From Azolla caroliniana (lineage: Eukaryota > Plantae > Polypodiophyta): 64,000 bases of DNA. The stretch is from positions 14,322,001 through 14,386,000 of the forward strand of contig JBHGNT010000010.1 in the NCBI GenBank assembly GCA_043228905.1, given 5' to 3'. Each line of letters begins with the position of its first letter. Within the stretch, counting starts at the first letter, position 1. The translations under genes were made by a program, and so were the position numbers. The notes under the pieces are model-generated. The model had not been told where the DNA came from. It searched no databases and saw only the letters and a program-made list of their open reading frames with translations. Of this stretch, positions 30,875 to 58,089 are shown piece by piece.

Positions 30875-30947
30875 TTCCATTGCCGGGAGTTGAACCCGGG
30901 TCTCTCGGGTGAGAGCCGAGTATCCTAACCAACTAGACTACAATGGA
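30875..30947 (-). tRNA. trnE-CUC: tRNA-Glu(CTC), copy 3
   Basis: Identical to copy 1. Confidence 0.95.
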
Positions 30948-32492: not shown

Positions 32493-32565
32493 TTCCATTG
32501 CCGGGAGTTGAACCCAGGTCTCTCGGGTGAGAGCCGAGTATCCTGACCAACTAGACTACAATGGA
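32493..32565 (-). tRNA. trnE-CUC: tRNA-Glu(CTC), copy 4
   Basis: Two substitutions versus copy 1 (D-loop GGTCAGG, and a T-stem U-G wobble). Cloverleaf retained. Confidence 0.9.
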
Positions 32566-32889
32566 TCACATTTTGTGTGCTTTTTATCGTAACAATGTTG
32601 AGGAATAACGACAACGAAATAGACTATCTGTTGTTGTCCCGAAAAACATAATATTTATTCCAATTTCATTCGCAACCCCTACCATTAATCGAATAATGGG
32701 ATTAAGTTTTGAAATGGATGTGAGGAGTAAGAAATCAAAGTAAATTTCGTTATCAATCCTTCAAACAGAATATTTATTATTTTGTTAATTTTACATTATT
32801 ATAACAGCTACTTTACGTCGTTAGTTTTTGAGTTATTAAGTAGTTAACAAATCACATGCGTCGCAAAATTTGATATATGATATTGTCCT

Positions 32890-34311: not shown

Positions 34312-37300
34312 TGTTGGGATTACGGTCCCTCCGGATGGGATGGTCAGATGTCCGGGAATCGGGAATGAAGACCCGAACGAGGAGTACCCGGTATTGGTTC
34401 CGGATGATGAAGACCCCGGCTACGGAGCCGGATGACGAAGACCCGGTTTCGGATCCGGATGATGAAGACCCCGGCTACGGAGCCGGATGACGAAGACCCG
34501 GTTTCGGATCCGGATGATGAAGACCCCGGCTACGGAGCCGGATGACGAAGACCCGGTTTCGGATCCGGATGATGAAGACCCCGACTACGGAGCCGGATGA
34601 CGAATGTACCCGGAGAGAGATCCGGATGCGGGGACATATCTGTGAATATGTTTACCAAGGGCCCTCGAGGCTATATTTGTAAATAGCCCGAAAGTCATAT
34701 GTGTATAAATATGACTTAGGGCAAACAGTTTTTTGTTGTTGCTCATTTTTCTGTTTTCCACTTAGAGGGAGCGAAGTGAGAGTAGCCGAGAGAGAGAGAA
34801 AGGAAGAGGTCGATGCCTCTGTGTAATACCGCCGCCTGTGGCGAGGACAGCGAGCTCAAGGTCGTCGCCTTGCAGCTCGCCATTGTACATTCTCTGCGTA
34901 TAGTGATAGTTGGAGCCTTGCACTCCCATGGTTTTTCCCGTCCAGGGTTTTCCACGCTAAACCCTGTGCATTCGAGTCTCTCTCTGTGTTTTGATTTACT
35001 TCTGCATTGATTCGTGTTTCCTCGGTTGTGGCCGAGAGGTGAAGGGTTTGTTTTAGAAGCGTCCATTCCCTAACAATCTGGTATCAGAGCGACTGCAGTG
35101 CAGAAAATGGAAGGCGGCAGCAGCGGGCAGCCGAGGATGATGGTGCTGAATGCGCAGAACTACGCCGACTGGAAGATAAAGATGGAGGATCTGCTCATTG
35201 TTCGGGACCTGTATGAACCGATCGACAGGTCGGAAATACCCAAGGGGGTACTTGAGACGGAATGGAGGCTTCTGAACCGCAAAGCCGTTGAAACCATTCG
35301 GCAATACGTCGACGTGAGCGTTCTACAACATGTGGCGAACGACACCAACGCATATGAGATGTGGCAGAAGCTGTCGGGCCTCTACGAGAGGAAGAATGTG
35401 TTGAACCGGACCTCCCTGATGAGGAAGATAGTGAACCTCAAGTACCGGGACGGCGAGAGTATGGTGGAACACGTAAGCACGTTCATGAGATTCGTGAACC
35501 AGCTTGCGGTGATCAAGTTCCCGTTGGAGGATGCAATGCAAGCCATCATGCTGATGTGTACATTGCCGGAAAGCTGGGAGAACTTGGTGGTGACTCTCAG
35601 CACCTCCTGCACCGAAGATAACTTGTCCCTACAAACGGTAAAGACAAGCATTTTGAACGAAGAAGCACGTCGGAGAGATAAAGAACCGGCCTCCGATCCG
35701 AAGATGCTGCTTACCGAATCGGATCGGGGAAGACAACGGAACCGGAGTCCGCAAAGACGGGAGAAGTCGGGGACCCGGTCGCAGTCAAGAGGAAGGCCCA
35801 CATGCTTCCACTGTGGGAAGCCGGGGCACTTCCGAAAGAATTGTCGGCATTACCGAAAAGACAACGGAGCCGACGACACCGATTCGAAGAAGTCTTCGGA
35901 ACGGAACGGTGCTTACCGGGGAGCCACGAACCGGAATGGTTCGGATCGGTGAGGGCAGGACCGGAAAGGAACGACGGCACTCGCGGCAAGTGAAGAGGAG
36001 ATCATGCTCATCACCGAAGAAGGTGAACTAAACATTGCCGGCGATGAGACTACCTGGGTGGTCGATTCCGGAGCGTCGTTCCACCTGACCCCGGAAAGAA
36101 GATACTTCTCATCCTACACAGCCGGTGAGCATGGCTGTGTTCGGATGGGAAATGAAGGTACGTGCCGGATTGCCGGCATAGGAGACGTGTGGTTGACAAC
36201 CTCGACCGGAAGCAACATGTTGCTGAAGGATGTCCGACACGTTCCGGAGGTTCGATTGAACCTGATTTCGGCCGGGAGGCTAGACGATGAAGGCTACACA
36301 GGTAGCATCCGGAACTGCGTTATGAAGTTCAGCAAGGGGAGCCTGATAGTGGCTCGGGCCCGGAAAGTCAACACACTGTACCTTATGAATGCCTGGTTGT
36401 GTCCGGATGAGTTGAACGTGGCAGCCGACACTGCCGGTGAGCTGTGGCACAAGAGACTGTGCCACATGAGTGAGAAGGGGATGAAGAGGCTTGCAGAAGA
36501 AAACCTTATTCCAGTGAAGCATGTGCACCTGGAGAAGTGCACCGATTGCCTGGCCGGTAAGCAGAACCGAACCTCCTTCCACTCAAGGCCACCGACGAGA
36601 TGTAGCGCACCATTGGAGTTGGTGCATACTGACGTGTGTCAAGTAGAAACGAAGTCACATGGCGGAGCCCAGTACTTCGTGACATTCATTGATGACCACA
36701 GCCGGAAGCTGTGGACGGCACCGTTGAAGACAAAGGACCAAGTGTTGTGCGTCTTCAAAGAACTCCACGCGAGAGTGGAAAGGGAATCCGGCAAGAAGCT
36801 GAAAGCGATACGAGCGGATAACGGAGGGGAATACCGGGGGCAGTTTGCGGAGTACTGTCGCTCGAAGGGAATACGGCTCGAGTTTACTGTGCCGAAGACG
36901 CCGGAACTGAACGGGCTGGCCGAGAGGATGAACCGGACCATAATGGAGAGGGTCCGGAGTATGCTGGCGCATGCGAAACTACCCAAGGGGTTTTGGGCTG
37001 AGGCAATGTCGACGGCGACATACGTGATAAACAGATCACCCTCAGTACCTTTGGACGGGGACACGCCGCAAAGAGTGTGGACCGGTAGGGAAGTATCCTA
37101 CCGGCATCTGAAGGTGTTCGGGTGTCTCGCATATGTGCATGTGGCAAAAGACCGGAGAGGAAAGCTAGATCCAGACCCGGCCATGCATATTCCTCGGTTA
37201 CGGCGATGATGAGTTCGGCTACCGAGTATGGGACCCGGTCGACAAAAAGATATTCCGGAGTCGTGATATCATCTTCATGGAGGACAAGACACTCGCCGAC

Positions 37301-39812
37301 TGGGAGTCGGAGAAGAAGATGAAGAGCTCCAAGTCGACCGGTGAGGATCAACTCTACGAGGAGCAGTCCCGACCGGCAAGGGACCGATTAGCACTCGAGG
37401 ATCCGGCCGAAGACGGTGAAGAAACAGAACCGGCCGAGGAAGATGAAACTGATACCGGAACCGGCCCCGATCCCGAAATGGATTCGGATGAAGAGGAAAC
37501 GGAGGAGCCGGTTACCGAAGCTCCGGAACGGAGATATCCTCTAAGAGAGAGAAGGGCCCCCCGGAGATTTCCGGAACCAGAGCACGTGTTGCTAACCGAC
37601 GAGGGGGAGCCGGAGAGTTTTGAAGAAGCAAAGCTTGACACCCATAGCCGCAGGTGGTTGAGTGCCATGCAGGAGGAGATGGATTCCCTGTATGAGAACC
37701 ACACATATGAACTTGTGGAGTTGCCGAAAGGAAAGCGGGCACTTCGAAACAAGTGGGTGTTCAAGCTGAAACCGGGAGATGCCGGAAACCCCCCGAGATA
37801 CAAAGCCAGGATCGTGGTGAAGGGGTTCCAGCAGAAGAAGGGCGTCGACTTCGACGAGATATTTGCCCCGGTAGTGAAGATGACCACCATCCGGACGGTG
37901 CTGAGCATAGCGGCAAGCATGGACCTCGAGGTAGAACAGATGGACGTGAAGACGGCATTCCTTCACGGTGACCTCGAAGAAGAGATCTACATGCAGCAAC
38001 CGGAAGGATTCGAGAAGAAAGGGAAGGAGCACCTGGTATGCTGGTTGAAGAAGAGCCTTTACGGACTGAAGCAGGCTCCCCGACAATGGTACCGGAAGTT
38101 CGACTCTTTCATGACCGACGAAGGGCACCACAAAACGGAGTCCGATCACTGCGTGTTTGTGAAGAAGTTCGAGGGAGGAGACTCTCTAATACTCCTCCTG
38201 TACGTGGACGACATGTTGATCGTCGGACGGGACCAGGTCAAGATACGGATGCTGAAGAAAGCGCTTCACCGAACCTTCTCAATGAAGGACCTGGGTCCGG
38301 CGAGACAAATACTAGGGATGCACATCATCCGGGACCGGAGCAAGAAGCAATTGTGGCTTCACCGGTTCAACATGTCGGAAGCAAGACCGGTCGGGTCAAC
38401 CCTCCCGGCAAACTGCAAGTTGTCTAGCAAGCAAAGCCCCAAGACAAAGGCTGAGAAGGAGGACATGATGAAAGTACCATATGCCTCTGCCGTCGGAAGC
38501 TTGATGTACGCAATGGTGTGTACAAGACCAGACATAGGATATGCAGTCGGAGTGGTGAGCCGGTAGATGAGCAATCCTGACAAAGAGCACTAGAACGCGG
38601 CCAAGTGGATACTCCGATACCTGAAGGGCACGGCAAACGTGTGCCTCCGATTCAGCTCCGGTAAGCCCGAACTCGACGGCTTTACCGATTCGGATATGTC
38701 GGCTGATGCAGATACCAGCCGGTCCACATCAGGGTATGTGATGACGTATGCAGGGGGAGCTGTTTCGTGGCAGTCGAGGCTGCAAAAGACGGTTGCGTTG
38801 TCAACCACGGAGGCGGAGTATATGGCGGCTGTTGAAGCCGGCAAGGAAATAATATGGATGAAGGACTTCATTAGAGAGCTCGGTATCCGGCAGGAGGAGT
38901 ACCGACTCTACTGCGACAGTCAGAGTGCAATCCACCTTGCGAAGAACGCGGCCTATCACTCACGGACGAAGCACATCCAGCAAAGATATCACTGGATCCA
39001 GGAAAGGATAGAAGACCAGGAGTTCGTGCTGACGAAGATCCACACGGACGAGAACGGGTCAAATATGCTGACCAAAGTGCTCACACCCGACAAGCTGGAA
39101 GCGTGCCGGAAGAGGGTCGGACTGGAATGACATCCCATGCCGAAGTGAAGGGGGAGTTTGTTGGGATTACGGTCCCTTCGAATGGGATGGTCAGATGTCC
39201 GGGAATCGGGAATGAAGACCCGAACGAGGAGTACCCGGTATTGGTTCCGGATGATGAAGACCCCGGCTACGGAGCCGGATGACGAAGACCCGGTTTCGGA
39301 TCCGGATGATGAAGACCCCGGCTACGGAGCCGGATGACGAATGTACCCGGAGAGAGATCCGGATGCGGGGACATATCTGTGAATATGTTTACCAAGGGCC
39401 CTCGAGGCTATATTTGTAAATAGCCCCAAAGTCATATGTATATAAATATGACTTAGGGCAAACAGTTTTTTGTTGTTGCTCATTTTTCTGTTTTCCACTT
39501 AGAGGGAGCGAAGTGAGAGCAGCCGAGAGAGAGAGAAAGGAAGAGGTCGACGCCTCTGTGTAATACCGCCGCCTGTGGCGAGGACAACGAGGTCAAGGTC
39601 GTCGCCTTGCAGCTCGCCATTGTACATTCTCTGCGTATAGTGATAGTTGGAGCCTTGCACTCCCGTGGTTTTTCCCGTCCAGGGTTTTCCACGCTAAACC
39701 CTGTGCATTCGAGTCTCTCTCTGTGTTTTGATTTACTTCTGCATTGATTCGTGTTTCCTCGATTGTGGCCGAGAGGTGAAGGGTTTGTTTTAGAAGCGTC
39801 CATTCCCTAACA
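34312..39812 (+). mobile_element. Full-length Ty1/copia element C nested in the integrase of element A
   Basis: LTRs 34312-35075 and 39159-39812 (differ by two 55-bp repeat units). TSD CTTCC. PBS 35079-35090. gag-pol broken by stops and frameshifts (ORFs 35098-35952, 36004-37209, 37277-38566, 38639-39130). Confidence 0.96.
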
Positions 39813-40353
39813 CTTCCCATTCGCCTCCGGATTGTACGCAGTGGTAAGCGAGAGCTTGACTCCTAGCCGGCCGAACAACTCCTCGGCCTCTTCAGCGTCC
39901 AACTCCCCGCGATCAGCCACGATCTTCCCGACGCACCCGTACCGGCATATCACGTCCTCGATCAGGAACCGACATACGGCCGTGGTCGTTTTGCCCTGAA
40001 GGGCTCGGCCTTCCACCTGGTTCGTCAGATCTTCCCGAGCCAGGACCAAATACCGCATCTATCCTACTCCCATCGGCATTGTCACCAGATCTACCATCCA
40101 TTTGAAGTGGATGGTCGAAGGGTACGTAGGGTGAAGCTCGTCCCGATGTCGGACTATGGAGTGCATCTGACAACTCTCGCAAGTTGTCACGAACCGATGC
40201 ACGTCCCGGTACAGTCCCGGCCACCAGTACTTCCCCTTTATCTCCTCGAACGTGGCCCACGTTCCACGGTGTCCAGCCCAGGGGCTGTCGTGGTAGGCCG
40301 TCAGCAGCTCCTCCTGTTCTTCCTTCATCGCCACCACCCGGAGCGGGACACCC

Positions 40354-43300
40354 TGTTGGGATTACGGTCCCTTCGGATGGGATGGTCGGATGTCGGAGAT
40401 GAATGACGACAAGCCCGGTTGCGGTTTCGGAACCGGATGATGAAGATCCCGGTTACGGAGCCGGATGACGAATGTACCCGGAGAGAGATCCGGATGCGGG
40501 GACATATTTGTGAATATGTTTTCCAAGGGCCCTTGAGGCTATAGTTGTAAATAGCCCGAAAGTCATATGTGTATAAATATGACTTAGGGCAAACAGTTTT
40601 ACTGTTGCTACTCATTTTTCTGTTTTTCCACTCAAGAGGAGTGAAGAGAGAGCAGCCGTGAGAGAGATAGAGCGTGAGAGAGGAAGAGGTCGACGCCTCT
40701 GTGTATTTCCGCCGCCTGTGGCGAGGACAGCGAGCTCAAGGTCGTCGCCTTGCAGCTCGCCATTGTATATTTCTCTGTGCATAGTTTTGGTTCGGAGTCT
40801 TGTACTCCCGTGGTTTTTCCTGAACAGGGTTTTCCACGTTAAATCGTGTGTCCACTTATTTACTACTGCATTTCCCATTTTCTGCAACAACGATTCGTGT
40901 GTTTCCTTGGTTGTGGCCGAGAGGTGAAGTTTGGAAAGTGTCGATTAATTTCCATCAATTTGGTATCAGAGCGAGTTGCTGGAGAAAATGGAAGGCGGCG
41001 GAAGCGGGCAGCCGGGGATGATGGTGCTGAATGCGCAGAATTACGCCGACTGGAAGATCAAGATGGAGGATCTTCTGATTGTTCGGGACCTGTACGAACC
41101 GATTGACAGGTCGGAAATACCGAAGGGGGTACTTGAGTCGGAATGGAGGCTTCTGAACCGCAAAGCCGTTGCAACCATTCGGCAATACGTAGACGTGAGC
41201 GTTCTACAACATGTGGCGAACGACACCAACGCATATGAGATGTGGCGGAAGCTGTCGGGCCTCTATGAGAGGAAGAATACGTTGAACTGGACCTCCCTGA
41301 TGAGGAAGATAGTGAACCTCAAGTACCGGGACGGCGAGAGTATGGTGGAACACGTAAGCACGTTCATGGGACTCGTGAACCAGCTTGCGGCGATCAAGTT
41401 CCCGCTGGAGGATGCAATGCAAGCCATCATTCTGATGTGTACATTGCCGGAAAGCTGGGAGAACTTGGTGGTGACTCTCAGCACCCCCTGCACCGAAGAT
41501 AACTTGTCCCTACAAACGGTAAAGACAAGTATTTTGAACGAAGAAGCACGTCGGAGAGATAAAGAACCGGCCTCCGACTCGAAGGCGCTGCTTACCGAAT
41601 AGGAACGGGGAAGACAATGGAACCGGAGTCCGCAAAGACGGGAGAAGTCGGGGACCCGGTCGCAGTCAAGAGGAAGACCCACATGCTTCCACTGTGGGAA
41701 GCCGGGGCACTTCCGAAAGAATTGTCGGCATTACCGAAAAGACAACGGAGCCGACGACACCGATTCGAAGAAGTCTTCGGAACGGAACGGTGCTTACCGG
41801 GGAGCCACGGACCGGAATGGTTTGGATCGGCGAGGGCAGGACCGGAAAGGAACGACGGCACTCGCGGCAAGTGAAGAGGAGATCATGCTCATCACTGAAG
41901 AAGGTGAACTAAACATTGCCGGCGATGAGACTACCTGGGTGGTCGATTCCGGAGCGTCGTTCCACCTGACCCCGGAAAGAAGATACTTCTCATCCTACAC
42001 AGCTGGTGAGCATGGCTGTGTTCGGATGGGAAATGAAGGTACGTGCCGGATTGCCAGCATAGGAGACGTGTGGTTGACAACCCCGACCGGATGCAAAATG
42101 CTGCTGAAGGATGTCCGACACGTTCCGGAGGTTCGATTGAACCTGATTTCGGCCGGGAGGCTAGACGATGAAGGCTACACAGGTAGCATCCGGAACGGCG
42201 TAATGAAATTCAGCAAGGGGAGCCTGATAGTGGCTCGGGCCCGGAAAGTCAACACACTGTACCTTATGAATGCCTGGTTGTGTCCGGAAGAGTTGAACGT
42301 GGCAGCCGACACTGCCGGTGAGCTGTGGCACAAGAGACTGTGCCACATGAGTGAGAAGGGGATGAAGAGGCTTGCAGAAGACAACCTTATTCCAGTCAAG
42401 CACGTGCACCTAGAGAAGTGCACCGATTGCCTGGCCGGTAAGCAGAACCGAACCTCCTTCCATTCAAGGCCACCGACGAGACGTAGCGCACCATTGGAGT
42501 TGGTGCACACTGATGTGTGTCAGGTAGAAACGAAGTCACATGGCGGAGCCCAGTACTTCGTAACATTCATTGATGATCACAGCCGGAAGCTGTGGACGGC
42601 ACCGTTGAAGACAAAGGGCCAAGTGTTGTGCGTCTTCAAAGAACTCCACGCGAGAGTGGAAAGGGAATCCGGCAAGAAGCTGAAAGCGATACGAGCGGAT
42701 AACGGAGGGGAATACCGGGTGCAGTTCGCGGAGTACTGTCGCTCGAAGGGAATCCGGCTCGAGTTTACTGTGCCGAAGACGCCGGAACTGAACGGGCTGG
42801 CCGAGAGGATGAACCGGACCATAATGGAGAGGGTCCGGAGTATGCTGGCGCATGCGAAATTACCCAAGGGGTTTTGGGCTGAGGCAATGTCGACGGCGAC
42901 ATACGTGATAAACAGATCACCCTCAATACCTTTGGACGGAGACACGCCGCAGAGAGTGTGGACCGGTAGGGAAGTATCCTACCGGCATCTGAAGGTGTTC
43001 GGGTGTCTCGCATATGTGCATGTGGCTAAGGACCGGAGAGGAAAGCTAGATCCAAAGACCCAGCCATGCATATTCCTCGGTTACGGCGATGACGAGTTCG
43101 GCTACCGAGTATGGGACCCGGTCGACAAGAAGATATTCCGGAGTCGTGATATCATCTTCATGGAGAACAAGACACTCGCCGACTGGGAGTCGGAGAAGAA
43201 GATGAAGAGCTCCAAGTCGACCGGTGAGGATCAACTCTACGAGGAGCAGTCCCGACCGGCAAGGGACCGATTAGCACTCGAGGAGAAACAGAACCGGCCG

Positions 43301-45656
43301 AAGAAGATGAAAATGATACCGGAACCGGCCCCGACCCCGAAATGGATTCGGATGAAGAAGAATCGGAAGAACCGGTTACCGAAGCTCCGGAACGGAGATA
43401 TCCTCTAAGAGAGAGAAGGGCCCCCCGGAGATTTCCGGAACCAGAGCACGTGCTGCTAACCGACGAGGGGGAGCCGGAGAGCTTTGAAGAAGCAAAGCAT
43501 GACACCCAGAGCCGCAGGTGGTTGAGTGCCATGCAGGACGAGATGGATTCCCTGCATGAGAACCACACATATGAACTTGTGGAGTTGCCGAAAGGAAAGC
43601 GGGCACTTCGAAACAAGTGGGTGTTCAAGCTGAAACCGGGAGATGCCGGAAACCCCCCGAGATACAAAGCCAGGATCGTGGTGAAGGGGTTTCAGCAGAA
43701 GAAGGGCGTCGACTTCGACGAGATATTTGCCCCGGTAGTGAAGATGACCTCCATCCGGACGGTGCTGAGCATAGCGGCAAGCATGGACCTCGAGGTAGAA
43801 CAGATGGACGTGAAGACGGCATTCCTTCACGGCGACCTCGAAGAAGAGATCTACATGTAGCAACTGGAAGGATTCGAGAAGAAAGGGAAGGAGCACCTGG
43901 TATGCCGGTTGAAGAAGAGCCTTTACGGACTGAAGCAGGCACCCCGGCAATGGGACCGGAAGTTCGACTCTTTCATGACCGACGAAGGGTACCTCAAAAC
44001 GCAGTCCGACCACTGCGTGTTTGTGAAGAAGTTCGAAGGAGGAGACTTTCTAATACTCCTCCTGTACGTGGACGACATGTTGATCGTCGGACGGGACCAG
44101 GTCAAGATACGGATGCTGAAGAAGGCTCTTCACCGAACCTTCTCAATGAAGGACTTGGGTCCGGCGAGACAAATACTAGGGATGCACATCATCCGGGACC
44201 GGAGCAAGAAGCAGTTGTGGCTGTCACAGGAGAAGTACGTGACAAAGGTGCTTAAACGGTTCAACATGTCGGAAGCAAGACTGGTCGGATCGACCCTTCC
44301 GGCAAACTGCAAGCTGTCCAGCAAGCAAAGCCCCAAGACAAAGGCTGAGAAGGAGGACATGATGAAAGTGCCATATGCCTCTGCCGTCGGAAGCTTGATG
44401 TACGCAATGGTGTGTACAAGACCGGACATTGGATACGCAGTCGGAGTGGTTAGCCGGTACATGAGCAATCCCGGCAAAAAGCACTAGAACGCGGCCAAGT
44501 GGATACTCCGATACCTGAAGGGCACGGCAAACATGTGCCTCTGATTCGGCTCCGGTAAGCCCGAACTCGACGGCTTTACCGATTCGGATATGTCGGCTGA
44601 TGCAGATACCAGCCGGTCCACATCAGGGTATGTGATGACGTATGCAGGGGGAGCTGTTTCATGGCAGTCGAGACTGCAGAAGACGGTTGCGTTGTCAACC
44701 ACGGAGGCGGAGTACATGGCGGCTGTTGAAGCCGGCAAGGAAATAATATGGATGAAGGACTTCATTAGAGAGCTTGGTATCCGGCAGGAGGAGTACCGAC
44801 TCTACTGCGACAGTCAGAGTGCAATCCACCTTGCGAAGAACGCGGCCTATCACTCCCGGACGAAGCACATCCAGCGAAGATATCACTGGATCCGGGAAAG
44901 GATAGAAGACAAGGAGTTCGTGCTGACGAAGGTCCACACGGACGAGAACGGGTCGGATATGCTGACCAAGGTGCTCACACCCGACAAGCTGGAAGCATGC
45001 CGGAAGAGGATCGGATTGGAGAGACATCCCATGCCGAAGTGAAGGGGGAGTTTGTTGGGATTACGGTCCCTTCGGATGGGATGGTCGGATGTCGGAGATG
45101 AATGACGACAAGCCCGGTTGCGGTTTCGGAACCGGATGATGAAGATCCCGGTTACGGAGCCGGATGACGAATGTACCCGGAGAGAGATCCGGATGCGGGG
45201 ACATATTTGTGAATATGTTTGCCAAGGGCCCTTGAGGCTATAGTTGTAAATAGCCCGAAAGTCATATGTGTATAAATATAACTTAGGGCAAACAATTTTA
45301 CTGTTGCTACTCATTTTTCTGTTTTTCCACTCAAGAGGAGTGAAGAGAGAGCAGCCGTGAGAGAGATAGAGCGTGAGAGAGGAAGAGGTCGACGCCTCTG
45401 TGTATTTCCGCCGCCTGTGGCGAGGACAGCGAGCTCAAGGTCGTCGCCTTGCAGCTCGCCATTGTATATTTCTCTGTGCATAGTTTTGGTTCGGAGTCTT
45501 GTACTCCCGTGGTTTTTCCCGAACAGGGTTTTCCACGTTAAATCGTGTGTCCACTTATTTACTACTGCATTTCCCATTTTCTGCAACAACGATTCGTGTG
45601 TTTCCTTGGTTGTGGCCGAGAGGTGAAGTTTGGAAAGTGTCGATTAATTTCCATCA
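40354..45656 (+). mobile_element. Full-length Ty1/copia element D nested in the integrase of element A
   Basis: 604-bp LTRs 40354-40957 and 45053-45656. TSD CACCC. PBS 40961-40972. gag-pol very similar to C, with several stops. Confidence 0.96.
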
Positions 45657-47890
45657 CACCCTTCCTCTTCTTCGGGTGCTTCCATAAGTATCCGTCCCGG
45701 AGAAAGAATCGGTATGCTTTCTTCCGGATCCGGTTGGCCTCGTCCCTCGTCCATGACGTATCCGGCGTCATTGTCCTCAAAAACCCACCGATCTATAGCC
45801 ACTCGCCGTCGTACTTGCTCTCGTCAAAGTCGTTAAGTGTCGGAGTGCTCGTCCCATCGGTCGTCACGTACGCTGCTCCGAAGAAGACCACGCCGACTTC
45901 TTCGTCCTCCAAAACCATGCCGCCCTCGTCATGAAACCTCGCCCTCGAAAGCATGTCGGCCATGGCGTTGTCTTTTCCGGAAATGTGTCGTATTTCCGGG
46001 TCCAGGGACTTGATGTACGCTATCCACCTGAGCATCGCCAGGTCCGGTGTCGCGCATCCGGAAACCATGCCGAGAATTGGCAGGCAATCCGTCTCGATAA
46101 TCACTTCTGTCCCGATCAGGTAGTCTTTGTCGGACTTTACTGCCGAAACAATACCCCAGAGTTCGCGTTTAACCTGGGCGTACCCTCGCTGTCGCTCACT
46201 GAGGACCTTTGCGCCGAATCGGATCGGGAACCGGGTGCCGTCCTCGTCTTCTTGGTTGACGACCCATCCGATCCCGGTCGGGCTCGTATCCACCGTTATG
46301 TATACCGGGGTACTCTTCTCGTAGACAGCCTTCCGGAGCGCTGGTGCTACCGCAAGAGCTTCCTTTAGCTTCCGGACCGACTCCGTGTGCTCGTCTCGCC
46401 ACTCGAATTTTTCAGCAACTCGTATAGCGGCTCCGCAACGTGGGCGTAATGCGGGATCCATATGTGGTAGAAAGCGCATGCCCCCAGGAACCTCCGAACT
46501 TCCGTAACCGAGCTACAGTCGGTCTTCATCGCGGAGATGGCTTCTACCTTTGCCGGAGACGGCTTCCGGCCATATGGTCCACATAGGTGTCCGACCACCA
46601 GGATTTCTGATTGCCCGAAGGCCGATTTCTCCCCGGAGAAGGTGAGCCTCGCGTCCTCTAGCCTTTGTAGCACCTTCTCGCAGTCATGGATGTCTGTTGC
46701 CACGAATCGCCGGCATCCGTCCGGCCCGAGTGTCTCGTCCTTCTCTTCCACCGGGCACCCTTTGATCGGGATGTCGTCTAGAAATGGCATGGTGATGTCC
46801 GGGATGCAATCCCTCAGTACCTTGTTCATTGCATTCACCATGTGGGCCACCGAGTTGGTCCCTCCTTGTGGCAGGGTACACATTCGCACTAGGCCGAGGG
46901 GAGTTCGCATCGTCGTAATGTCTCTGCTCTCCACGGCTAGCTGGAACTGGTCGTACCCCGAGTACAGATCACCGACCGAGTAAATCGACCTTCCGGCGAA
47001 GGCCTCCGCGAACTCGTCTATGGTCGGTCCGATTCATGCGTTCCGAATGGTCACTTTGTTGACCGGCTGCAGGTCTTGAATGAAGCGCAATGTTCTGTTT
47101 TTCTTTGGTACGGTAAACCATCGGTTCGAGTATGGGGCACTTGACGGTTCGAGAATGCCCATATCGACTTTCTGCCTCAATAGCTCCATCAATTTCGGAT
47201 GTGAGCTCTCGGTACCGGAATTGGCTTGAGATTCCACGGCACATGCGGTACCGTGAATATCACCATCGGCTCCACGATTGTCGGGTCTACGCACCCGATC
47301 TCTTCCGGCGAGAATGCGAAGGCTTTCCCGTGCCTTCCGAGCATTCTCCGAAACCGGTCTTCCTCCGCCGGCAGTAGGAACCCGCCCCCACCGATTTTGA
47401 GCTCCCGGAGCGTCCCGTCGGTGAAGGTGTGTTCTATGAAGACCGGATCTCGCAAACTGGGGTCCGACGCAACCCCTCTGATTCGGGACTCGCTGCCCTC
47501 CGGCAAGGGTGCCGCGACGGGCCTTACCTTCTGGTCCACAGTCTTGTACTTCGTGCTAACTCGGGCCGTCCGGTCCGACCTGAGCCCTTGACTGAAGCTC
47601 GCGATGACTTCGTACATCTCTTCGGAACATACTGGTATCGTCCGGTCTTCGTTAAGGTCTTCTCCGGCTACCTTCCTCAGCATCCCCAAGGTGTCGTCGA
47701 AGGAGACCGCCTCCACGGCTCCGCTAATTTCCTCGTCCGGGCCGAGAACTCCGCACGCTCGAAGTCGCTCCTCCGCCCTTGCCTTTTCTCGGCCAACGAT
47801 GCCGACTATCATACACCCTCTGTTGTTGGAGAAGCAAAATTTTCTTCCCACTGTACAGGGTTTCTTCGGTTTCGGTTCTATCGTACAGCT

Positions 47891-47956
47891 GTGGGGTCTT
47901 TCCCGAGTGTCCGGACTGTCTCGGCCCCACGCCTTGGCAGCCCTCTCTAAAAATCC
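47891..47956 (-). promoter_or_regulatory. Predicted -1 programmed ribosomal frameshift signal (G GAU UUU plus pseudoknot), element A
   Basis: Heptamer 47950-47956 lies directly before the gag-pro TAG. The -1 frame is open into pol. Stem GGGCTG/CAGTCC with loop GTGGGG able to pair with downstream CCCCAC. Confidence 0.75.
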
Positions 47957-50900
47957 TCCTGGTTCTCGCCACCGAGGGATTTGCGGTTTTGCTCGTGGTT
48001 CGGCCGCACCGTCAGAAATTGGACCGAATGGTGCCCATCCTGGCTTTTGACCCTCGCGTAGGCCGAACTGTTGTCCAGCACTTTGGTCTCCATTCTCGCC
48101 GCCATTATGTATGGTTCCCCTAAAATGACCGGATGCGAGGACGTCTCCTGTACGAAGAAGTATTGGTCAATCTCGATGTCGCCGATCTTGACTCGCACAT
48201 TCGGGCAGGCCCCGTGCAGTTCCTCGGTGGCGCGCGTCGCCGCCCGTATCTTCCACCCGTGCTTGGTGTTGATCGGCCATTTTCCCTTCTTATAGAAGTC
48301 CATGGACATCAGGTTTATTTCCGAACCGTGGTCCACCAGTGCTACCACCGGTTCCTGAACATCTCTGATCTTTACCGGGGTCTCCGTGGTCGCTCGGGCC
48401 CAGTGTGGCCTCGAATAGTGGCTCTCCGCCCACCCATCTTCCAGTGCTAAGTCGTCGATGTGCGTCGTCCGCACCTCCACCGGTCTTTCCGGTTCCGTCT
48501 CCGTCGACAGCCTCTTCCATTTCACCAAGTCTACAATGGAGTCATGGAACTCCTTCTTGGCGATCCCTAGCACCTCCCGCGATGACAACTCCACTTTGCT
48601 GTCGAGGATCCGTTCTTCTAGGACCTTTCATAGGTCCGTGGTCCTTTCTATTTCCGTCCCCAGTCGGTATCCGCCCTTCCTGGGGTTATCTTGCGAGCTG
48701 GACCCACCGGCATTGTTCCGTCGTTGCCCTAATCGGGTCTCGTATCGTTGTGAGGGCCCGGCCGCTCCGGCTTTCCCCACTCGTTTGTCTTCTACCAGAG
48801 CCTCGTAGTTCCAGCAGGCGGCTTCTACGAAGCCCGTCTTCTCCTCGACCGGATCGCTCCACCCGGTTATTTCCCGGACCCGTCTCTCAGCGCGGTCCAT
48901 TTCATCTTTCCTCAGCCGTGCACCGGCGAGGCCTTCCAGCATTGCTGACCAGAATCCGTCTTTGCTCTCCTTTCGGGCCTCGCTGCCCCCGACCCGAATA
49001 CCGGCCGACGCCGAGTCCGGGCCTTCCCACATGTACACCACCTGGTTCCTCAACGCCTCTACGAAATCGCCGCAGTCCTTCCGAATGTGGCCGACCTCGT
49101 CGCACCACATGCACTTGTTCCCTGCTGCCGGCCGTCGGTCACGAGCCGGTTCGCCGCCTTCCCTTCGAGTCTGGGTGATCTGGAGATCCTTTATCGCCGG
49201 TGTCAACTCCTCCAGCGCTGCTCCTCCGGACGAGCCACTGACCATGTCGGTCGAAGCCGGACCGGTTTTTGAGCCATTCCCGGGTTTCTTCCCTTCGCCC
49301 TTGCGGTGCCGGTTCAAGCCTCCTTGCTGTGACAGAGCCCGCACCAGCCGCCCCGTTGTCAGCCCATTCTCGCCGTTTGTTGAAACGGCCACAGACTCTC
49401 TTAACCGCAGCCCAGTCGGTCGTCAGCCCGTCTTCGGTTTCCAGCAAGGAGCCGACTTGATCCCGGTCCCGCTCGTCCACCGACTTGACGAACAGTAGGA
49501 CCCGGCTCATATCCAGAACGGTTCGGTCAAGCGCCGAAATGCGCGCAAAGCGTTCTTCGAACTCCCGGAGGAGTGCCGACGCGTTTCTTCCCTTGCCGGG
49601 GGACTCCACCCATTCCATGAAGTCTCGTTTCGAAAGCCGGAGCGCGTCGTCCAGCCCGTATTTTTCTAGGAGTCGGCCTTCGAACTCCTCCCAGGTACGG
49701 CTCTCTGCCCGCACCTCGAGCACCTCCGCATGGATGCTCGGCATCGCCACTCGAGGAAACCCGACAAGACGCCTCTCTTCCGGAATGTCCCACTGTCGTG
49801 CCTTTCGGCTCCGGATCGTTGCGTGAGTCGGGTGGGAACCACAGAGGTCTTGGACTAGGAGAAAGAAGTTCGTGAGATAGAGATTAATTATGAGTAAATA
49901 GCAAAGAGAAAGATAAGAAACTCGTGAATCACACGAGTATACTATATTAATTGGTACTTAGGGTGTTAAGAGAGACGTAGATGTATAAATCGTGAATCCC
50001 ACGAATAAATTTCGTATTGATTAATACTTAATCCAAATAATCAACAACCCTTTACATATTTCTCTCCTCCTTATATAAGGAAGGAAGAGCTAAGCATGGC
50101 TTCATGTTTTTTTTTTACAAAAAGTGTTCATGTCCACTAAATGTGCATGTGATGCTTTTTTTATTTCCTAAGTATAGGGCTCATGCACGCTAGATGTGCA
50201 TGAGTTATTTTTTAGTGTCTCGTCTTTTTCATATATTAAAAAATACACGATTTACCTTTTAATAAAGGTATGCATAAATAAAGGTCTTATACATATTAAA
50301 TCTATATTTAAAGCACTTAAGATAAGTTAATGTAATGGTAAGGTTGGGGTTTGTCAACGTGGAGGTGCAGAGTTCAAATCACGCCCTGCGCAGTAGTGAG
50401 TATTTCCTTTCTTTTTACTTTTATGTCTCTTTATCCGGCTCTTCCTTGCCGGTATGCCGTTTTCTTCCTTGCCGGTATGCCGTTTTTCCTCCTTGCCGGT
50501 ATGCCGTTTTCTTCCTTGCCGGTATGCCGTTTTCTTCCGGTTCTCACCGAGCACTCCATTCTCTATCCGGAGGGACAAAAATATAATTTCCACATAGTGT
50601 GCAACCTACACTACGACACTCGCCCCCTCCAAACCCGCACATCCTCCGGTATGTGCCGAAGTTCTTGATTCTTCGTATCCGTCTTCATCCGAAGCTTCCT
50701 CCGATTCTCCCCTTATGTCGACTATGAGTTGTAATCCACTTTCTTTGCTTCCCGCATCATTGTGGTCTTCGTCCGATTGCTCCTCGTTGTCGGCCTCGAC
50801 TTGGATCACATAAGGTTTGTCGTCGGTCCGCTTCTTGAAAATCTTCACCCGCTTCCCGGCTATAGGCACTCGTAGTATTGTTCCATCCAACTCGGACAGT

Positions 50901-51438
50901 CGGTACGTCCCGTTGTCGAAGACCTTCCGAACCTCGTACGGCCCGAACCACCTTTTCGCGAATTTCCGCATCGTTGTATGTTGATGGTCCAAGCTACTAT
51001 CATAGACGATCACCCAATCTCCTTCTTCAATCCTCCTCGGTCGTAGTCGGTGCTTTGTGTCGAACCGGCTTTTGTTCCGGAACCGTGCTTCTTGTTGTCG
51101 GCGTGACGCTTCCGCTACATCTTTCGGTCTTCCCTCCAGTTGTCGTATCCGGACTGCTAGTAGTTCTTCCCGGCTCATCTCTTCCTTCCACGGTAGTATT
51201 GTCCATGTCGCGATTGCGGTTTCCGTTGGCATTACCGGTGCTTGTCCGGTCATGAGTTCTGCCGGCATGTAACCGGTCACGGAGCTATGCGTCGTCCGAT
51301 CCGCCCATAGTGCATACGGAAGCATTTGTGGCCAATCCTTCACCCTTCCGTCGCATGCCTTCGCAAGTGCTTTCACGATCGGACTATGTCCTCGTTCGAT
51401 CTTCCCGTTGGCCTCCGGATTGTAGGCCGTTGTCAACG

Positions 51439-54069
51439 TTAACCGAACTCCATGTTTGGCGAAGAATCCCCTTTGTCCGAGTCGAGTTCTCCCCGGTCCG
51501 CAATCACTTGTCCTACGCAGCCGTACCTACAAAACACTTCTTCCAAAAGAAATTGGCACACCGCGGCACACGTTTTCCTCCGAAGCGCTCGACCTTCAAC
51601 TTGGTTTGTGAGATCTTCTCGAGCTAACACCAAGTATTTCTTTTGTCCAATCCCGGTCGGCATAGCTACAATGTCGACCATCCACTTAAAGTTGATTGTC
51701 GGTGAGAATGTCGGATGCAGCTCATCTCGGTGTCGGACCCCGGAGTAGACTTGACATTTCTCGCAGCTTTCTGTGAACTCCGCGACATCTTTATACATGT
51801 TCTTCCACCAATATCTTTGCTTGATTTTCACAAAAGTTGCCCATGTTCCTCGATGTCCAGCCCAATCGGATTCGTGGAACTCGGACATTATCCGGTTTCG
51901 TTGCTCTTTCGTCCCGACTACTCGAAGTGGTATCCCATCCGGTCTTTTCGGCGTCCTCCATATTAAACCGTTTTCCAAGAAGAACTTTTGGACTTGCCTC
52001 TTCTTCCTTCGGATCTCGGCTCTCCTTTCTTTATTATTGGTTGAATCCTCGACCTCTTGTAGCATCTTCCCGATCATCAAGGTTTCCCCTTCGTATTCTT
52101 CTTCCCGGAATTCTCGGATCACGTTCACTCGGCATATGTGTTCTGACGTGAAGTAGTCTTCGGAAACTTCTTCATTATCTGATTCGGTTATGTCGTCTTC
52201 AAACCGCGCCCTCGATAACATGTCCGCTACCGCGTTGTCCTTCCCCGAGATGTGTCGAACCTCCGGATTAAGTGACTTGACATATGCAATCCACCTTAGC
52301 ATAGCCACATCCGGTATCGTACAACACCGCATCATCCCGAGTATCGGAAGACAATCCGTCTCGATCACCACTTCAGCTCCGATCAAATAATCCCGATCCG
52401 ATTTTATCGCCGACATGACTCCCCACAATTCTCTTTTGACTTGTGCATATCCGCGTTGCCTTTCATTGAGGACCTTTGCTCCAAATCGGATCGGATACCG
52501 CGAACCATCCGAGTCGGCTTGATTGATGACCCACCCGATACCGGTTGGACTTGTATCAACCGTTACTATGATTGGCCGCTCATAGCTTGGCTTCTTAAGT
52601 GATTCTGCCCTCCATAGTGTCTTCTTGAGCTTCCTCATGGCTTTAGTGTGTTCCGATTTCCACTCGAATTTCTTACCTTTCCGCAACAAGTGATAGAGCG
52701 GGTCCGCTATATGTGCATAGTGCGGAATCCATATGTGATAGAATGCACACGCACCCAGAAACCTTCGGACTTCCGATGTTGACTCACATACTTCCTTCAT
52801 AGCTTGAATCGCATCGATCTTTGTTGGTGACGGTCTTCGGCCGTAGGGTCCACATAGATGTCCGACCACCAATATTTCTTCTTGCCCGAATGCCGATTTC
52901 TCCCCGGAAAGTGTTAGGTGCACATCTTCTAGCTTTCGCAACACTTTCTCGCAATCATGAATATGGTCGACCACGAACTTTCGGCATCCCTGATCATCCA
53001 TAGTCTCATCTTTTTCTTCCACCGCGCATCCTTTCATCGGAATGTCATCTAGAAACGGCATCGTTATCTCCGGAATGCAATCTCGAAGCACCTTGTTCAT
53101 CGCGTTCATCATATGTGCAACCGAGTTTGTCGCTCCTTGTGGTAGTGTGCACATTCGAACTAGTCCTATCGGTGTCCGCATGGTAGTGATGTCTCGGCTC
53201 TCCACGGCTAGTTGGAATTGATCATACCCCGAGTATAGGTCCCCGATGGAGTATATCGCACGTCTGGCAAAAGCTTCCGCGAATTCGTCCACTATCGGAC
53301 CGACTCCCGAGTTCCGGATCGTGACCTTGTTCACCGGTTGCAAGTCTTGGATGAATCGGAGTGACCCATTCTTCTTCGGAACCGTAAACCATCGATTTGA
53401 GTACGGAGCACTTGATGGCTCTAGAATCCCCATCGCCACCTTCTCCTTGAGCAAGTCGATGACTTTCGGAATATGCGCCCGTGGCACCGGAATCGGCTTC
53501 AGGTTCCACGGTACATGATCAATCGTGAAGATCACCATCGGCTCCACTATCTTTGGATCAATGCATCCGATCTCCCTCGATGTGAACGCGAATGCTTTGC
53601 CGTGTTGCTCCAACATCTCTCGAAACCGTTTTTCTTCTTCTTGTAAGAGGAACCCACCTCCACCGATCCGAAGTTTCTTCCGGGTCTCATCTGTGAAGGC
53701 ATGTCCGATATGCACGGTCTTCCGAAGTGTCGGATCTCCCGAGACTTCTTTCCTCTTTTGTTCGCTATCGGCGGGTAGTGGTCCCGCGGCCGGTTTCACC
53801 TTCTTCTCCACGGTCTTGTATTTCGTACTTACCATTGCTTCTTCTTTGCGGAGCGCATCCGGCCCCATTTTCGCAACGATCTCGTACATCTCGACCGATT
53901 CCACCGGGACTACCCGGTTCCCTTGGCTTTTATCTTCCGCAAGCTCTTCAAGCCGTTGTAGTGTATTCCCATAGAACACTTCCTCGATCACTCCCACGAT
54001 TTCTTCGTCTTCTTTTATTATTGATGCCGACCGTAACTTATCCTCCACTTGTCGGTATTGTTTTTTCAT
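51439..54069 (-). CDS. Gypsy pol (RT, RNase H, integrase N-terminal part) of element B; integrase continues frameshifted in 50606-51436
   Basis: DLYSGYDQ, LPQGATNS, PFLDD, VDTSPTGIG, IETDCLP, NAVADMLSR, H..GH...CxxC zinc finger, ADRGE, NPEANGKIER, GPY motif. Confidence 0.92.
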   Translation of the reverse strand: MKKQYRQVEDKLRSASIIKEDEEIVGVIEEVFYGNTLQRLEELAEDKSQGNRVVPVESVEMYEIVAKMGPDALRKEEAMVSTKYKTVEKKVKPAAGPLPADSEQKRKEVSGDPTLRKTVHIGHAFTDETRKKLRIGGGGFLLQEEEKRFREMLEQHGKAFAFTSREIGCIDPKIVEPMVIFTIDHVPWNLKPIPVPRAHIPKVIDLLKEKVAMGILEPSSAPYSNRWFTVPKKNGSLRFIQDLQPVNKVTIRNSGVGPIVDEFAEAFARRAIYSIGDLYSGYDQFQLAVESRDITTMRTPIGLVRMCTLPQGATNSVAHMMNAMNKVLRDCIPEITMPFLDDIPMKGCAVEEKDETMDDQGCRKFVVDHIHDCEKVLRKLEDVHLTLSGEKSAFGQEEILVVGHLCGPYGRRPSPTKIDAIQAMKEVCESTSEVRRFLGACAFYHIWIPHYAHIADPLYHLLRKGKKFEWKSEHTKAMRKLKKTLWRAESLKKPSYERPIIVTVDTSPTGIGWVINQADSDGSRYPIRFGAKVLNERQRGYAQVKRELWGVMSAIKSDRDYLIGAEVVIETDCLPILGMMRCCTIPDVAMLRWIAYVKSLNPEVRHISGKDNAVADMLSRARFEDDITESDNEEVSEDYFTSEHICRVNVIREFREEEYEGETLMIGKMLQEVEDSTNNKERRAEIRRKKRQVQKFFLENGLIWRTPKRPDGIPLRVVGTKEQRNRIMSEFHESDWAGHRGTWATFVKIKQRYWWKNMYKDVAEFTESCEKCQVYSGVRHRDELHPTFSPTINFKWMVDIVAMPTGIGQKKYLVLAREDLTNQVEGRALRRKTCAAVCQFLLEEVFCRYGCVGQVIADRGELDSDKGDSSPNMEFG

Positions 54070-54149
54070 TCCTTCGGTTACGGCCGTGTACGTAGATGCC
54101 CCATCCGGGCCGATTCGTACTTGTTTTGCTCCGAGAGTTTTCTTCCTGT

Positions 54150-54213
54150 GTGGGGTATCAGGGTTTCTCGGACTATCACTTCCCCACTCCGCAATAGTCC
54201 GCTTTAAAAATCC
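54150..54213 (-). promoter_or_regulatory. Predicted -1 programmed ribosomal frameshift signal, element B
   Basis: G GAT TTT TAA (54204-54213). The -1 frame is open into the 51439-54069 ORF. Stem CGGACTAT/ATAGTCCG with loop GTGGGG able to pair with CCCCAC. Confidence 0.75.
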
Positions 54214-55329
54214 ATTCTCACTTGGGACAAGAGTTCCTTTCGTGATTTGCCGGCACCGTTAGGAATTGGACGGATTTCCCTCCGTTTTGGCTCCGAATTC
54301 GCGCAAAAGCCGCACCACTATCGAGCACCTTCGTCTCCATCCGTCTTTCCGGAAGTTCGGTCGGAGTGGCTTCCGAGAGTCCATCGAATGAATCCGGTTT
54401 CCCTCGTAGTAGATGAGATCCCGTCGTAGCGCCTCCTTATGGTCGTCGCAATCCCTCCGATCGTGTTCGGCGCTACGCACCATATGCACCGTCGATCCGT
54501 ATATTTGGAGCTTGTGGGGCGGTCATCCGACTTCTTCACCATCGCGATCTTTAGATTCTCCATCTCCTTCAGCAGCTGCTCCACCGTAGACGCGTCGACT
54601 CCCTTCTCGGCCGTAATCTCCCGAGCCCTCGGTTGATGGTCTTCCAATCCCGTTCTCGGTTTCGGAATCGGTTCCGAAACCCTCTTTTCTTCGTTGGCAA
54701 GCCATTGCCCCCTCTTCGTGTACCGCGCGACGATATCCCGCACGCTTTCCCATGTTTCGGTGAGGCCGCTTTCGGTGGTCGTGTCCTCAAGAAGCACTCC
54801 GAGATCTTTCCGGTCCCGGACGTCCACAGCTCGCAAAAACATGATGACTTTGTCCGGTGCAAGAATAGTTTGATCTCTCGCGGACAACCTCCCGAACCGA
54901 CTTTCGAATGTCGAAAACACTTCGAGGACCTTCAACCCCTTACCTGACGTTTCCACCCAATCCTCGAATCCCCTCCGCGTTGCCTTGGAGGAGTCCTCGA
55001 TGGCAAACGTGGTCTTTAACGCCTCTTCGAATGCTTCCCACGTCGGATTTTGTTGTTGCAACCCGTGGATACTCCCTTGAAGCGCGTCGGTCGCCACCCG
55101 GTTAAAGGATGTCACTTGCAGTCCTTCCGAAGCCCGGCACCGGAGCATCTCCGCCTTGTAGTCCTGCAAATATCGCGACACATCCTTACCATTAAATTGC
55201 CCGTTGCGTTGCACGAGCCGCTCTACTGATGCCGAAATCTCCGACATCGTGCGTTGTTCTTGAAGCATCCGTTCGAACATCGCCATCATATTGTTAGCTT
55301 GTTGAGCCTCCATCTCCTTGCCACCCGTT

Positions 55330-55347
55330 TTCACGTCGGGTTCACCA
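55330..55347 (-). promoter_or_regulatory. Primer-binding site complementary to the tRNA-Trp 3' end (element B; same at 56356-56373 in A)
   Basis: Plus strand ttcacgtcgggttcacca equals the 3'-terminal 18 nt of plant cytosolic tRNA-Trp plus CCA as I recall it. Lies 3-4 bp from the LTR. Confidence 0.85.
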
Positions 55348-57028
55348 ACTGTGTCGTGCCTTTCGGCTCCGGATCGTTGCGTGAGTCGGGTGGGAACCAC
55401 AGAGGTCTTGGACTAGGAGAAAGAAGTTCGTGAGATAGAGATTAATTATGAGTAAATAGCAAAGAGAAAGATAAGAAACTCGTGAATCACACGAGTATAC
55501 TATATTAATTGGTACTTAGGGTGTTAAGAGAGACGTAGATGTATAAATCGTGAATCCCACGAATAAATTTCGTATTGATTAATACTTAATCCAAATAATC
55601 AACAACCCTTTACATATTTCTCTCCTCCTTATATAAGGAAGGAAGAGCTAAGCATGGCTTCATGTTTTTTTTTTACAAAAAGTGTTCATGTCCACTAAAT
55701 GTGCATGTGATGCTTTTTTTATTTCCTAAGTATAGGGCTCATGCACGCTAGATGTGCATGAGTTATTTTTTAGTGTCTCGTCTTTTTCATATATTAAAAA
55801 ATACACGATTTACCTTGTAATAAAGGTATGCATAAATAAAGGTCTTATACATATTAAATCTATATTTAAAGCACTTAAGATAAGTTAATGTAATGGTAAG
55901 GTTGGGGTTTGTCAACGTGGAGGTGCAGAGTTCAAATCACGCCCTGCGCAGTAGTGAGTATTTCCTTTCTTTTTACTTTTATGTCTCTTTATCCGGCTCT
56001 TCCTTGCCGGTATGCCGTTTTCTTCCTTGCCGGTATGCCGTTTTTCCTCCTTGCCGGTATGCCGTTTTCTTCCGGTTCTCACCGAGCACTCCATTCTCTA
56101 TCCGGAGGGACAAAAATATAATTTCCACATAGTGTGCAACCTACACTACGACACCGCATCAGCATTTCTGCCCCGTAGGACGCCAAATACTTCGTGGCAT
56201 CCTTTCCGCTGAACCGGCCGATCGTACCGACGACCACCTCAATGGCTCTGTCGAGGGCGTCGGTGCCCTCGCGTGCGCTCAATATCCGATCCACGGCCGA
56301 AGCCATGGGCTCCGCAAGATCCGACCCCTTCATCTTCTGCTCTTCTGCCGCCTCCTTCACGTCGGGTTCACCAAGATGTCGAGGTATTCCTCGCGGATGC
56401 GTGGAATGAGGCGGGACCTCGGGGTCTTGTACCGAAGAGCAAGAGAGAAAGGAGAAGGGAAGAGACCCACTAGGTGCGAGCGTAGATCCACAGGGACACG
56501 GCCCTTCGACACGAAGACGCGAGCGGGAAACCAACACAGAGAGACACGAAGGTATGTATGTATATATTAACAGAGACAAACAACAAGAAGCACGAAGTTG
56601 GTTACAACCGAATAGGCCGGCGAACAGATGCTGATGCCTGTTCGTAAACGCACAGAAAGGAAAGAGTAGGTTGGAGGTGCTGCCGGAAGCACTCGGGCAT
56701 TCCTCAGAGCAGCGCGAGCCGCCCGAAACCTGCACAGCAAGAAGCTACGGAGTTTGCGAGCGAGAGAGAGAGAGAAGCCTCCGACCCACAAACCGACAGC
56801 ACTTCGTCCTCGACTCTCCGCGATCCCCTTCCTCCTCCTCGTCTCCCTCCTTTTATAGGCAAGAAGGGAGCCGTTTCCTATTAACTTCCTACCTACCGAA
56901 TCTACCTACCTAGGATCTTCCATGTCCCTAATTCTCTCTTATGTATATCACAAGGCGTACGTGCATGAAGAGCCGGTTCCTATGCTCCGGCGCACCGATT
57001 CTGCTCGTGGACGGTTTTCTTCACGACA

Positions 57029-58083: not shown

Positions 58084-58089
58084 CGTCTC

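Follow-up and report, generated by a model that had tools for sequence, protein, structure and literature searches.

The window analysed here is a 64 000-nucleotide (nt) stretch of the genome of Azolla caroliniana (contig JBHGNT010000010.1, positions 14,322,001 to 14,386,000), which contains two long terminal repeat (LTR) retrotransposons, elements A and B, one nested inside the other and both on the minus strand. Both are Phygy-like Ty3/gypsy elements, and their reverse transcriptases (RTs) are 73% identical. Element A spans 32924..57028, with its 5' LTR at 57028-56377, its 3' LTR at about 33576-32924 and a target-site duplication (TSD) of ACGA/ACGA. Its sequence is split by element B and also by copia insertions (45656-40354 and 39813-34311). 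Element B (49794..56153) lies inside the gag of element A and has LTRs at 56153-55352 and about 50619-49794 that are 97% identical, with a TSD of GCGG/GTGG. In both families the Gag-protease (Gag-Pro) frame ends at a heptamer, G GAT TTT (G GAU UUU in RNA), followed by a predicted pseudoknot, and pol continues from there in the -1 frame, an arrangement that suggests programmed ribosomal frameshifting (PRF) between protease and RT.

The 3' part of the Gag-protease frame of element A (47947..48627; 226 codons) contains a DHGS active-site motif and ends ...EDF-stop; its assignment draws in part on the fold of the homologous domain of family B. The heptamer (47950..47956) forms the last two Gag-Pro codons and is followed by a 6-nt spacer (47944..47949) made up of the stop TAG (47949-47947) and three further nt. 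In the 31-nt block that comes next (47913..47943), stem 1 pairs 47943-47936 with 47920-47913, with one C-A mismatch, and the loop carries GTGGGG (47930-47925), the 5' strand of stem 2. The 3' strand, CCCCAC (47891..47896), lies beyond a 16-nt loop 3. The pol frame, -1 from the heptamer (47192..47956), is open for 255 codons in the window copy. The heptamer of element B (54207..54213) is followed by TAA (54206-54204) and by stem 1 and its loop (54169..54201), in which the core pairs 54200-54193 with 54177-54170 and GTGGGG occupies 54187-54182; here CCCCAC (54150..54155) lies beyond a 14-nt loop 3. The pol open reading frame (ORF) of element B in the -1 frame (51439..54258; 939 codons) encodes RT, RNase H and the integrase zinc finger, and the integrase resumes at 51526-50606 beyond a copy-specific frame break.

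A sequence-only reading of the window had proposed both sites, and they were found where it placed them, on the minus strand, each with a -1 frame that runs on into pol (for more than 554 codons in B). It had described the stem 5-6 nt downstream as conserved in its pairing; the stem is present and covaries, but is longer than written, with an 8-bp core that extends to 11 bp in B. Its statement that the upstream frame is a protease frame ending at G GAT TTT-stop is correct for element A and for the other 29 of the 30 top B loci, but not for the window copy of B. In that copy, a 10-nt deletion near 54232 (291 nt, compared with 301 nt in other copies) causes the protease frame to stop at 54220-54218, and only 37 codons are open in the frame that ends at the heptamer.

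Copies of both families were compared using the 30 best genomic loci each of A and B, window copy included, picked by similarity over 290-400 nt spanning the site. The heptamer is present in all 30 loci of each family and is followed by a stop in 29 of the 30 A loci and all 30 B loci. The frame of pol is shifted by -1 from that of the protease at 24 of the 28 A loci with anchors and at 29 of the 30 B loci, and the two frames coincide at none; the remaining four A loci have copy-specific downstream deletions, and two of the 30 A loci lack anchors. In one B copy Gag-Pro is a single intact ORF of 679 codons and the pol frame runs for 1203 codons from the heptamer. The -1 layout recurs across families of 55-99% identity, among them copies whose ORFs are unbroken and whose LTRs are 97-99% identical. 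Searching the 523-Mb genome for the heptamer, 6 nt and the stem in succession gave 1876 matches, and none for the reversed control, a count that does not give the proportion of elements with the signal; with a GAT heptamer and a 5-nt spacer there are eight matches. Another programmed shift, between gag and protease, was considered and rejected: most B loci, and those A loci that stay open for that distance, have the zinc knuckle and the protease in a single frame.

The identity of the upstream domain was examined by sequence and by structure prediction. Comparison of the C-terminal domain of ORF1 with the Pfam proteases gave a weak match (E value of 0.005), with one fungal homolog above the cut-off, and a sequence search of the PDB returned nothing useful. 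A single-sequence fold of the domain reached a predicted local distance difference test score (pLDDT) of 35, and an alignment-based model (pLDDT of 75) was used instead; this model matches Ddi1 and retroviral proteases with an E value of 4e-7. The Pfam domains of ORF2 are RT, RNase H and integrase. The break therefore lies between protease and RT, as the sequence-only reading had it, and the domain upstream of it folds in the model as a retroviral-type aspartic protease.

Independent families were obtained from metagenomes, where loci were retrieved by their protease peptides and not by the signal. Among the best 80 of 175 such loci, 75, one of them L139, contain the heptamer and the stem; among the other five, the sequence runs out or diverges ahead of the site in two, the site is deleted in one and two (L141 and L145) are decayed. 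The latter two are Gag-Pro relatives in which the heptamer lacks its first G, the stop and the stem are lost and no pol lies behind; they are possibly a pol-less derivative with a decaying signal, or assembly chimeras. The pol frame is readable in 63 metagenome loci, and is -1 in 60, -2/+1 in two and degenerate in one. A single-frame gag-pro-pol, which would have spoken against a recoding site, was found neither in these 63 loci nor in the 58 anchored A and B loci. The heptamer is G GAU UUU/C in 68 of the 74 loci counted, G GUU UUY in four and G GGU UUU in two, and the spacer to the stem core is 6 nt in 72 of the 74. All three stop codons end ORF1 (27 TAA, 26 TAG and 11 TGA), and in a few families the stop is displaced 3 or 15 nt further. 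In L124, L126, L127, L130 and L132 it lies 15 nt past the heptamer, within the 5' arm of stem 1, so that Gag-Pro gains five residues.

The metagenome loci also locate the change of coding frame. The linker upstream of the heptamer is 22-37 codons long and is in the ORF1 frame throughout. In L088 and L133 the pol frame opens just 3 nt upstream of the heptamer and the ORF1 stop comes directly after it, so that the crossover must fall within about 10 nt at the heptamer. The constraint on coding changes frame at the same place: across nine sister pairs, two of which have alignment artefacts, substitutions are in excess at third positions of the ORF1 frame before the site (80 of 140) and of the pol frame after the pseudoknot (325 of 701). 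For comparative analysis, 38 clusters were reduced to 33 families by removing L041, L077, L111, L138 and L139 (duplicates, degenerate or without a pol match). In these 33 rows, which were picked for having the heptamer, column identity is 0.24-0.48 in the upstream linker and 0.72-1.0 in the heptamer.

The 33 families were aligned on the heptamer alone, and a gap-free 31-nt block is present directly behind the heptamer and spacer in all of them. The 8-bp core of stem 1 is paired in 257 of 264 cells (97.3%), compared with 24-44% in slid registers. Double changes that keep the pairing occupy 28 cells and occur in six of the eight pairs, and parsimony resolves them into about eight separate events. 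When columns were simulated as independent on the protease and RT tree, 232 ± 11 cells were paired and 4 ± 3 were double changes, and none of 5000 simulations reached either observed value. By mutual information with average product correction, four of the 15 highest-ranking pairs out of 435 belong to stem 1 (ranks 1, 3, 4 and 9), few because several stem-1 pairs are nearly invariant. For stem 2, the register of which was picked per sequence, the whole 4-nt loop core finds a pairing partner 10-16 nt beyond the stem in 32 of 33 families, as part of 4-8 contiguous bp. The cognate stem-2 duplex scores -11.3 compared with -9.5 on permutation (0 of 20 000), and all ten loop cores other than GGGG pair with their own partner, compared with 19% of 230 cross-combinations; both statistics ignore kinship. 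The heptamer and both stems are thus retained across families with compensatory changes, which agrees with the covariation and the GTGGGG-CCCCAC pairing anticipated from the window. A search of Rfam gave no matching family at E ≤ 5.

The elements can be assigned, on sequence features, to a Phygy-like lineage of Ty3/gypsy. In 13 copies examined, the 5' flank is NCGN in all 12 with a located 5' end, with an exact 3' duplicate in seven, and one primer-binding site (PBS) motif occurs in 12 of the 13; we take this motif to match tRNA-Trp. Pfam domains on proteins P0001 and P0002 are protease, RT, RNase H, integrase and SH3, a Ty3/gypsy domain order that fits Phygy, and no chromodomain was found in them at E ≤ 0.1. 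The lengths are about 6.9 kb (A), 7.2-7.4 kb (B) and 7.9 kb (a derived clade described below), compared with 7.66-9.97 kb published for Phygy from one species. Named homologs come from Physcomitrium, Riccia and Adiantum, those labelled Physcomitrium being 48-63% identical, and the viral contigs searched contained no relative. The hallmarks given for Phygy are a 4-bp NCGN TSD, a tRNA-Trp PBS and the absence of a chromodomain or extra RNase H, and REXdb lists it as a Physcomitrella-specific clade with its polyprotein/ORF organization entered as 'ND' (PMC6317226). The elements described here share with Phygy the NCGN TSD, the lack of a chromodomain and homologs labelled Physcomitrium patens, but Phygy is described as Physcomitrella-specific whereas the homologs found here come also from Riccia, Adiantum and mushroom-forming fungi.

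The wider range was read from protein ends alone. Of 120 homologs, 75 have D/G/N-F at the C-terminus and 23 have DF or GF plus five residues (98 of 120 together). In the DF cases, a preceding residue without a G-ending codon was seen in 0 of 91, compared with a background of 30%, as G GAU UUY demands. A Rhodofomes query gave 91 homologs, the named ones from mushroom-forming fungi; 76 of them end 105-160 residues past the active site, and 56 of these 76 end in DF, EN, GF, GN, EK or GK, fitting -1 heptamers. The lineage extends to liverworts, and probably to fungi, and Gag-Pro proteins from both have ends compatible with the heptamer. As a separate observation, elements of this lineage in non-seed plants and in mushroom-forming fungi have DUF4100 (PF13352) placed after Gag and before protease (proteins P0133-P0223), and the literature search found no paper naming it.

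Two metagenome families, L125 and L129, group together with support of 100/100 amid -1 families in a midpoint-rooted tree and have pol in the -2/+1 frame. They read CAG GTT TTT where their relatives read CAG GAT TTT, and the spacer to the stem core is 5 nt compared with 6 nt in the relatives; both stems are retained, with compensatory changes of their own. The pattern of this derived clade has 92 matches in the present genome, compared with eight for the GAT heptamer with a 5-nt spacer. A search for the GUU heptamer with a 6-nt spacer gave no matches, a partial control because T after the heptamer was excluded. The frame is -2/+1 at 13 of 15 genomic loci, the other two having downstream indels, and third-position substitutions in the pol frame after the pseudoknot number 35 of 60. 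Both ORFs are unbroken in three of eight full-length copies, with LTRs that are 99.6-100% identical, which indicates that the -2/+1 arrangement spread recently. Family L128 has G GUU UUC and a 6-nt spacer, and its pol remains in the -1 frame.

Taken together, these features point to a mechanism in which the Gag-protease frame ends at the conserved G GAU UUU, 6 nt upstream of a predicted, covarying H-type pseudoknot, and a minority of ribosomes likely shift -1 into pol; we place the probability of this reading at about 0.9. Ribosomes would read Gag-Pro up to the heptamer, at which point the pseudoknot, if it folds in vivo as predicted, would face the entry channel for mRNA. For most ribosomes the stop next to the heptamer would end translation and release Gag-Pro, making protease 1:1 with capsid. 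Some would undergo tandem tRNA slippage from GAU UUU to GGA UUU and yield a transframe product, Gag-Pro-RT-RNase H-integrase. The sequence contains the elements of a canonical -1 PRF site: a heptamer or accepted variant, a spacer of 5-9 nt, a predicted 3' pseudoknot and an overlapping -1 ORF. G GAU UUU with a nearby stop is a known umbravirus shift site, with G GA accepted as a variant of XXX (PMC5009743).

Several observations weigh against this interpretation. The window copies are both defective: A has stops and indels, and B has lost about 900 nt of gag/protease (junction 54321/54342) in addition to its 10-nt deletion. GGA is a non-canonical XXX. The A region folded alone is no stabler than shuffled sequences (z of -0.37; -2.86 for B), so that the evidence against chance is comparative, and alternative folds compete with the pseudoknot. 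The 33 representatives were chosen with a preference for an open pol frame, which means that the stop-free pol linker is partly selected, and most of the metagenome contigs have neighbouring accession numbers and may stem from a few related mosses. RNA reads from a related organism number 56-92 per run over 2 kb, with almost none at the junction (0-6 per run for the derived clade), and eight Riccia sorocarpa gene models (P0123-P0130) fuse protease and pol across a junction that falls 5-110 residues short of the expected length.

The Riccia models bear most directly on Ogre-like splicing, in which an intron between protease and RT would be removed in some transcripts and the structure would serve splicing or packaging. 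Ogre, likewise a non-chromovirus, splices at this position (PMC6317226), and the RNA reads at the junction are too few to weigh against splicing. The ORFs overlap, however, and a non-coding spacer of about 274 nt as in Ogre is not present; the G GAU UUU sites contain no GT donor. Splicing is further disfavoured because the linker is under pol-frame coding constraint: the sequence after the pseudoknot evolves as pol-frame coding, and the other two frames hold 3-24 stops each. The Riccia models make up eight of the ten fused protease-pol proteins found (the other two are fungal), and their junctions are short and mutually inconsistent, such that they are probably introns introduced by the gene finder to bridge the frameshift. 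We therefore consider splicing very unlikely. Separate synthesis of pol, by internal initiation or by termination-reinitiation with the structure as an aid, is as improbable and is mainly a rival for the derived clade, where pol-frame AUGs occur at -67 and -16 in L125 and at -7 in L129, and an early pol-frame AUG is present in all eight full-length copies examined (in L197 only past a copy-specific stop). L125 and L129 do not share homologous AUGs, and a +1-frame AUG open to the heptamer occurs by chance in 15 of 31 other families. Among the 31 -1 families, none has an upstream pol-frame AUG and the first downstream AUG falls anywhere from codon 3 to codon 111; it is this lack of a conserved AUG that disfavours separate initiation. 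Reinitiation would also leave the kept heptamer unexplained, and Pol is normally packaged as a Gag fusion. The least probable alternative, to which we give hardly any weight, is that what is conserved is a peptide motif where Pol begins, or else a mutation that dead copies have in common, with no function in the RNA. The pol-frame peptide over stem 1 is indeed partly conserved (G-F-x-x-R...S-P), but the stem-1 double changes alter amino acids while keeping the pairing, the loop and its stem-2 partner change jointly, and the -1 layout extends over the divergent families and intact copies described above.

Within the derived clade, the odds are moderately in favour of the pseudoknot driving a -2 shift into pol. 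A +1 shift, which would produce the same final frame with one residue fewer, is an unlikely but by no means negligible alternative for this clade, and sequence alone gives no distinction between the two. The run of six T in L129 and in a few genomic copies would let UUU re-pair as UUU at +1, and several -1 families also come to a 5-nt spacer if it is measured to the first possible pair, since one extra C-G pair can extend the stem in 10 of the 33 families. The upstream pol-frame AUGs are a further point against -2 shifting. On the other side, most copies in the clade read UUU GAC, for which re-pairing at +1 (UUG) is poor, whereas the A-to-U change in the heptamer would permit perfect A-site re-pairing at -2. 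[quoted passage not shown] Engineered constructs shift by -2 most at spacers that are 1-2 nt below the optimum for -1 (PMC3458567), and L128, with its 6-nt spacer, stays at -1. We lean, if only slightly, towards the fuller view that an ancient recoding device lies between protease and RT throughout the lineage, in mosses, liverworts, ferns and mushroom-forming fungi, and that in one recently active clade of mosses it switched direction, from -1 to -2, by way of two coupled changes: U in place of A in the heptamer and the loss of one spacer base.

The closest parallel in layout is Rous sarcoma virus (RSV) and the avian sarcoma/leukosis viruses, in which the protease forms part of the Gag reading frame (PMC12789967) and pol is reached by a -1 shift close to the gag terminus that a pseudoknot stimulates (PMC5009743). 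The elements described here differ in being non-enveloped retrotransposons of non-seed plants with G GAU UUU and a compact two-stem pseudoknot, whereas RSV needs a third stem; the resemblance is probably convergent. RNA2 of pea enation mosaic virus, an umbravirus, and the dianthoviruses share G GAU UUU with a nearby stop, on plant ribosomes (PMC5009743), but use pairing between an apical loop and an internal loop kilobases away, whereas stem 2 here forms locally, across a loop 3 of 10-16 nt, and in most cases the stop is immediate. In PRRSV nsp2TF the site is that of the derived clade (PMC7618472), in which the -1 frame likewise stops at once in the common UUU GAC copies. PRRSV uses no RNA structure and needs nsp1beta/PCBP bound to CCCANCUCC about 10 nt downstream, whereas the derived clade has a covarying pseudoknot 5 nt downstream, and no CCCANCUCC motif was seen by eye in the 80 nt after its site. 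Among plant Ty3/gypsy elements of the Tat clade, the break between PROT and RT is made in Ogre by a spacer that is spliced out and in Retand by an in-frame stop, and no lineage tabulated in PMC6317226 has overlapping GAG-PROT and RT frames; here the break is made by frame overlap. We found no description of the signal for this lineage in a literature search to which most subscription journals, Repbase and GyDB were external, so a prior mention is possible; the accessible parts of PMC12786077, PMC11963269, PMC3248453, PMC5014426 and bioRxiv 10.1101/2022.06.16.496473 contain nothing on it.

Element A sits within a tandem array with a 1618-nt unit (window 27000-32600 and 57100-58100), each unit having one tRNA-Glu(CTC) gene. 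The genes are at 27639, 29257, 30875 and 32493, with a further one at 57715, and the end of the 3' LTR of element A is about 360 nt upstream of a tRNA gene. Another locus (L063; G000:C191:30000-39900) matches the A locus and its flanks at 98% identity and holds element A without B or the copia insertions; it is likely another haplotype or a duplicate older than the nested insertions. A further copia element at 7460-11545 encodes a polyprotein of 1361 codons without a break, and element A contains two copia copies related to it (34311-45656).

The signal is strongly supported as a real feature of this large lineage of moss-type elements, and the plausible natural switch from -1 to -2 is the newest part. 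It supplies the polyprotein expression entry that is 'not determined' for Phygy, and adds a third way in which plant retrotransposons separate Gag-Pro from RT, beside the Ogre intron and the Retand stop. Where annotation of mosses, liverworts and fungi has an apparent 'frameshift mutation' or a short predicted intron at this junction, it is probably the functional state that is seen. The matched -1 and -2 families provide a natural pair for testing the direction of frameshifting, for which only engineered spacers have been available until now (PMC3458567). If the -2 reading of the derived clade is true, it would be a natural pseudoknot-driven -2 frameshift without a protein cofactor, with -1 relatives in the same genome, and the two sets of families would constitute an evolutionary test of the mRNA-tension model.

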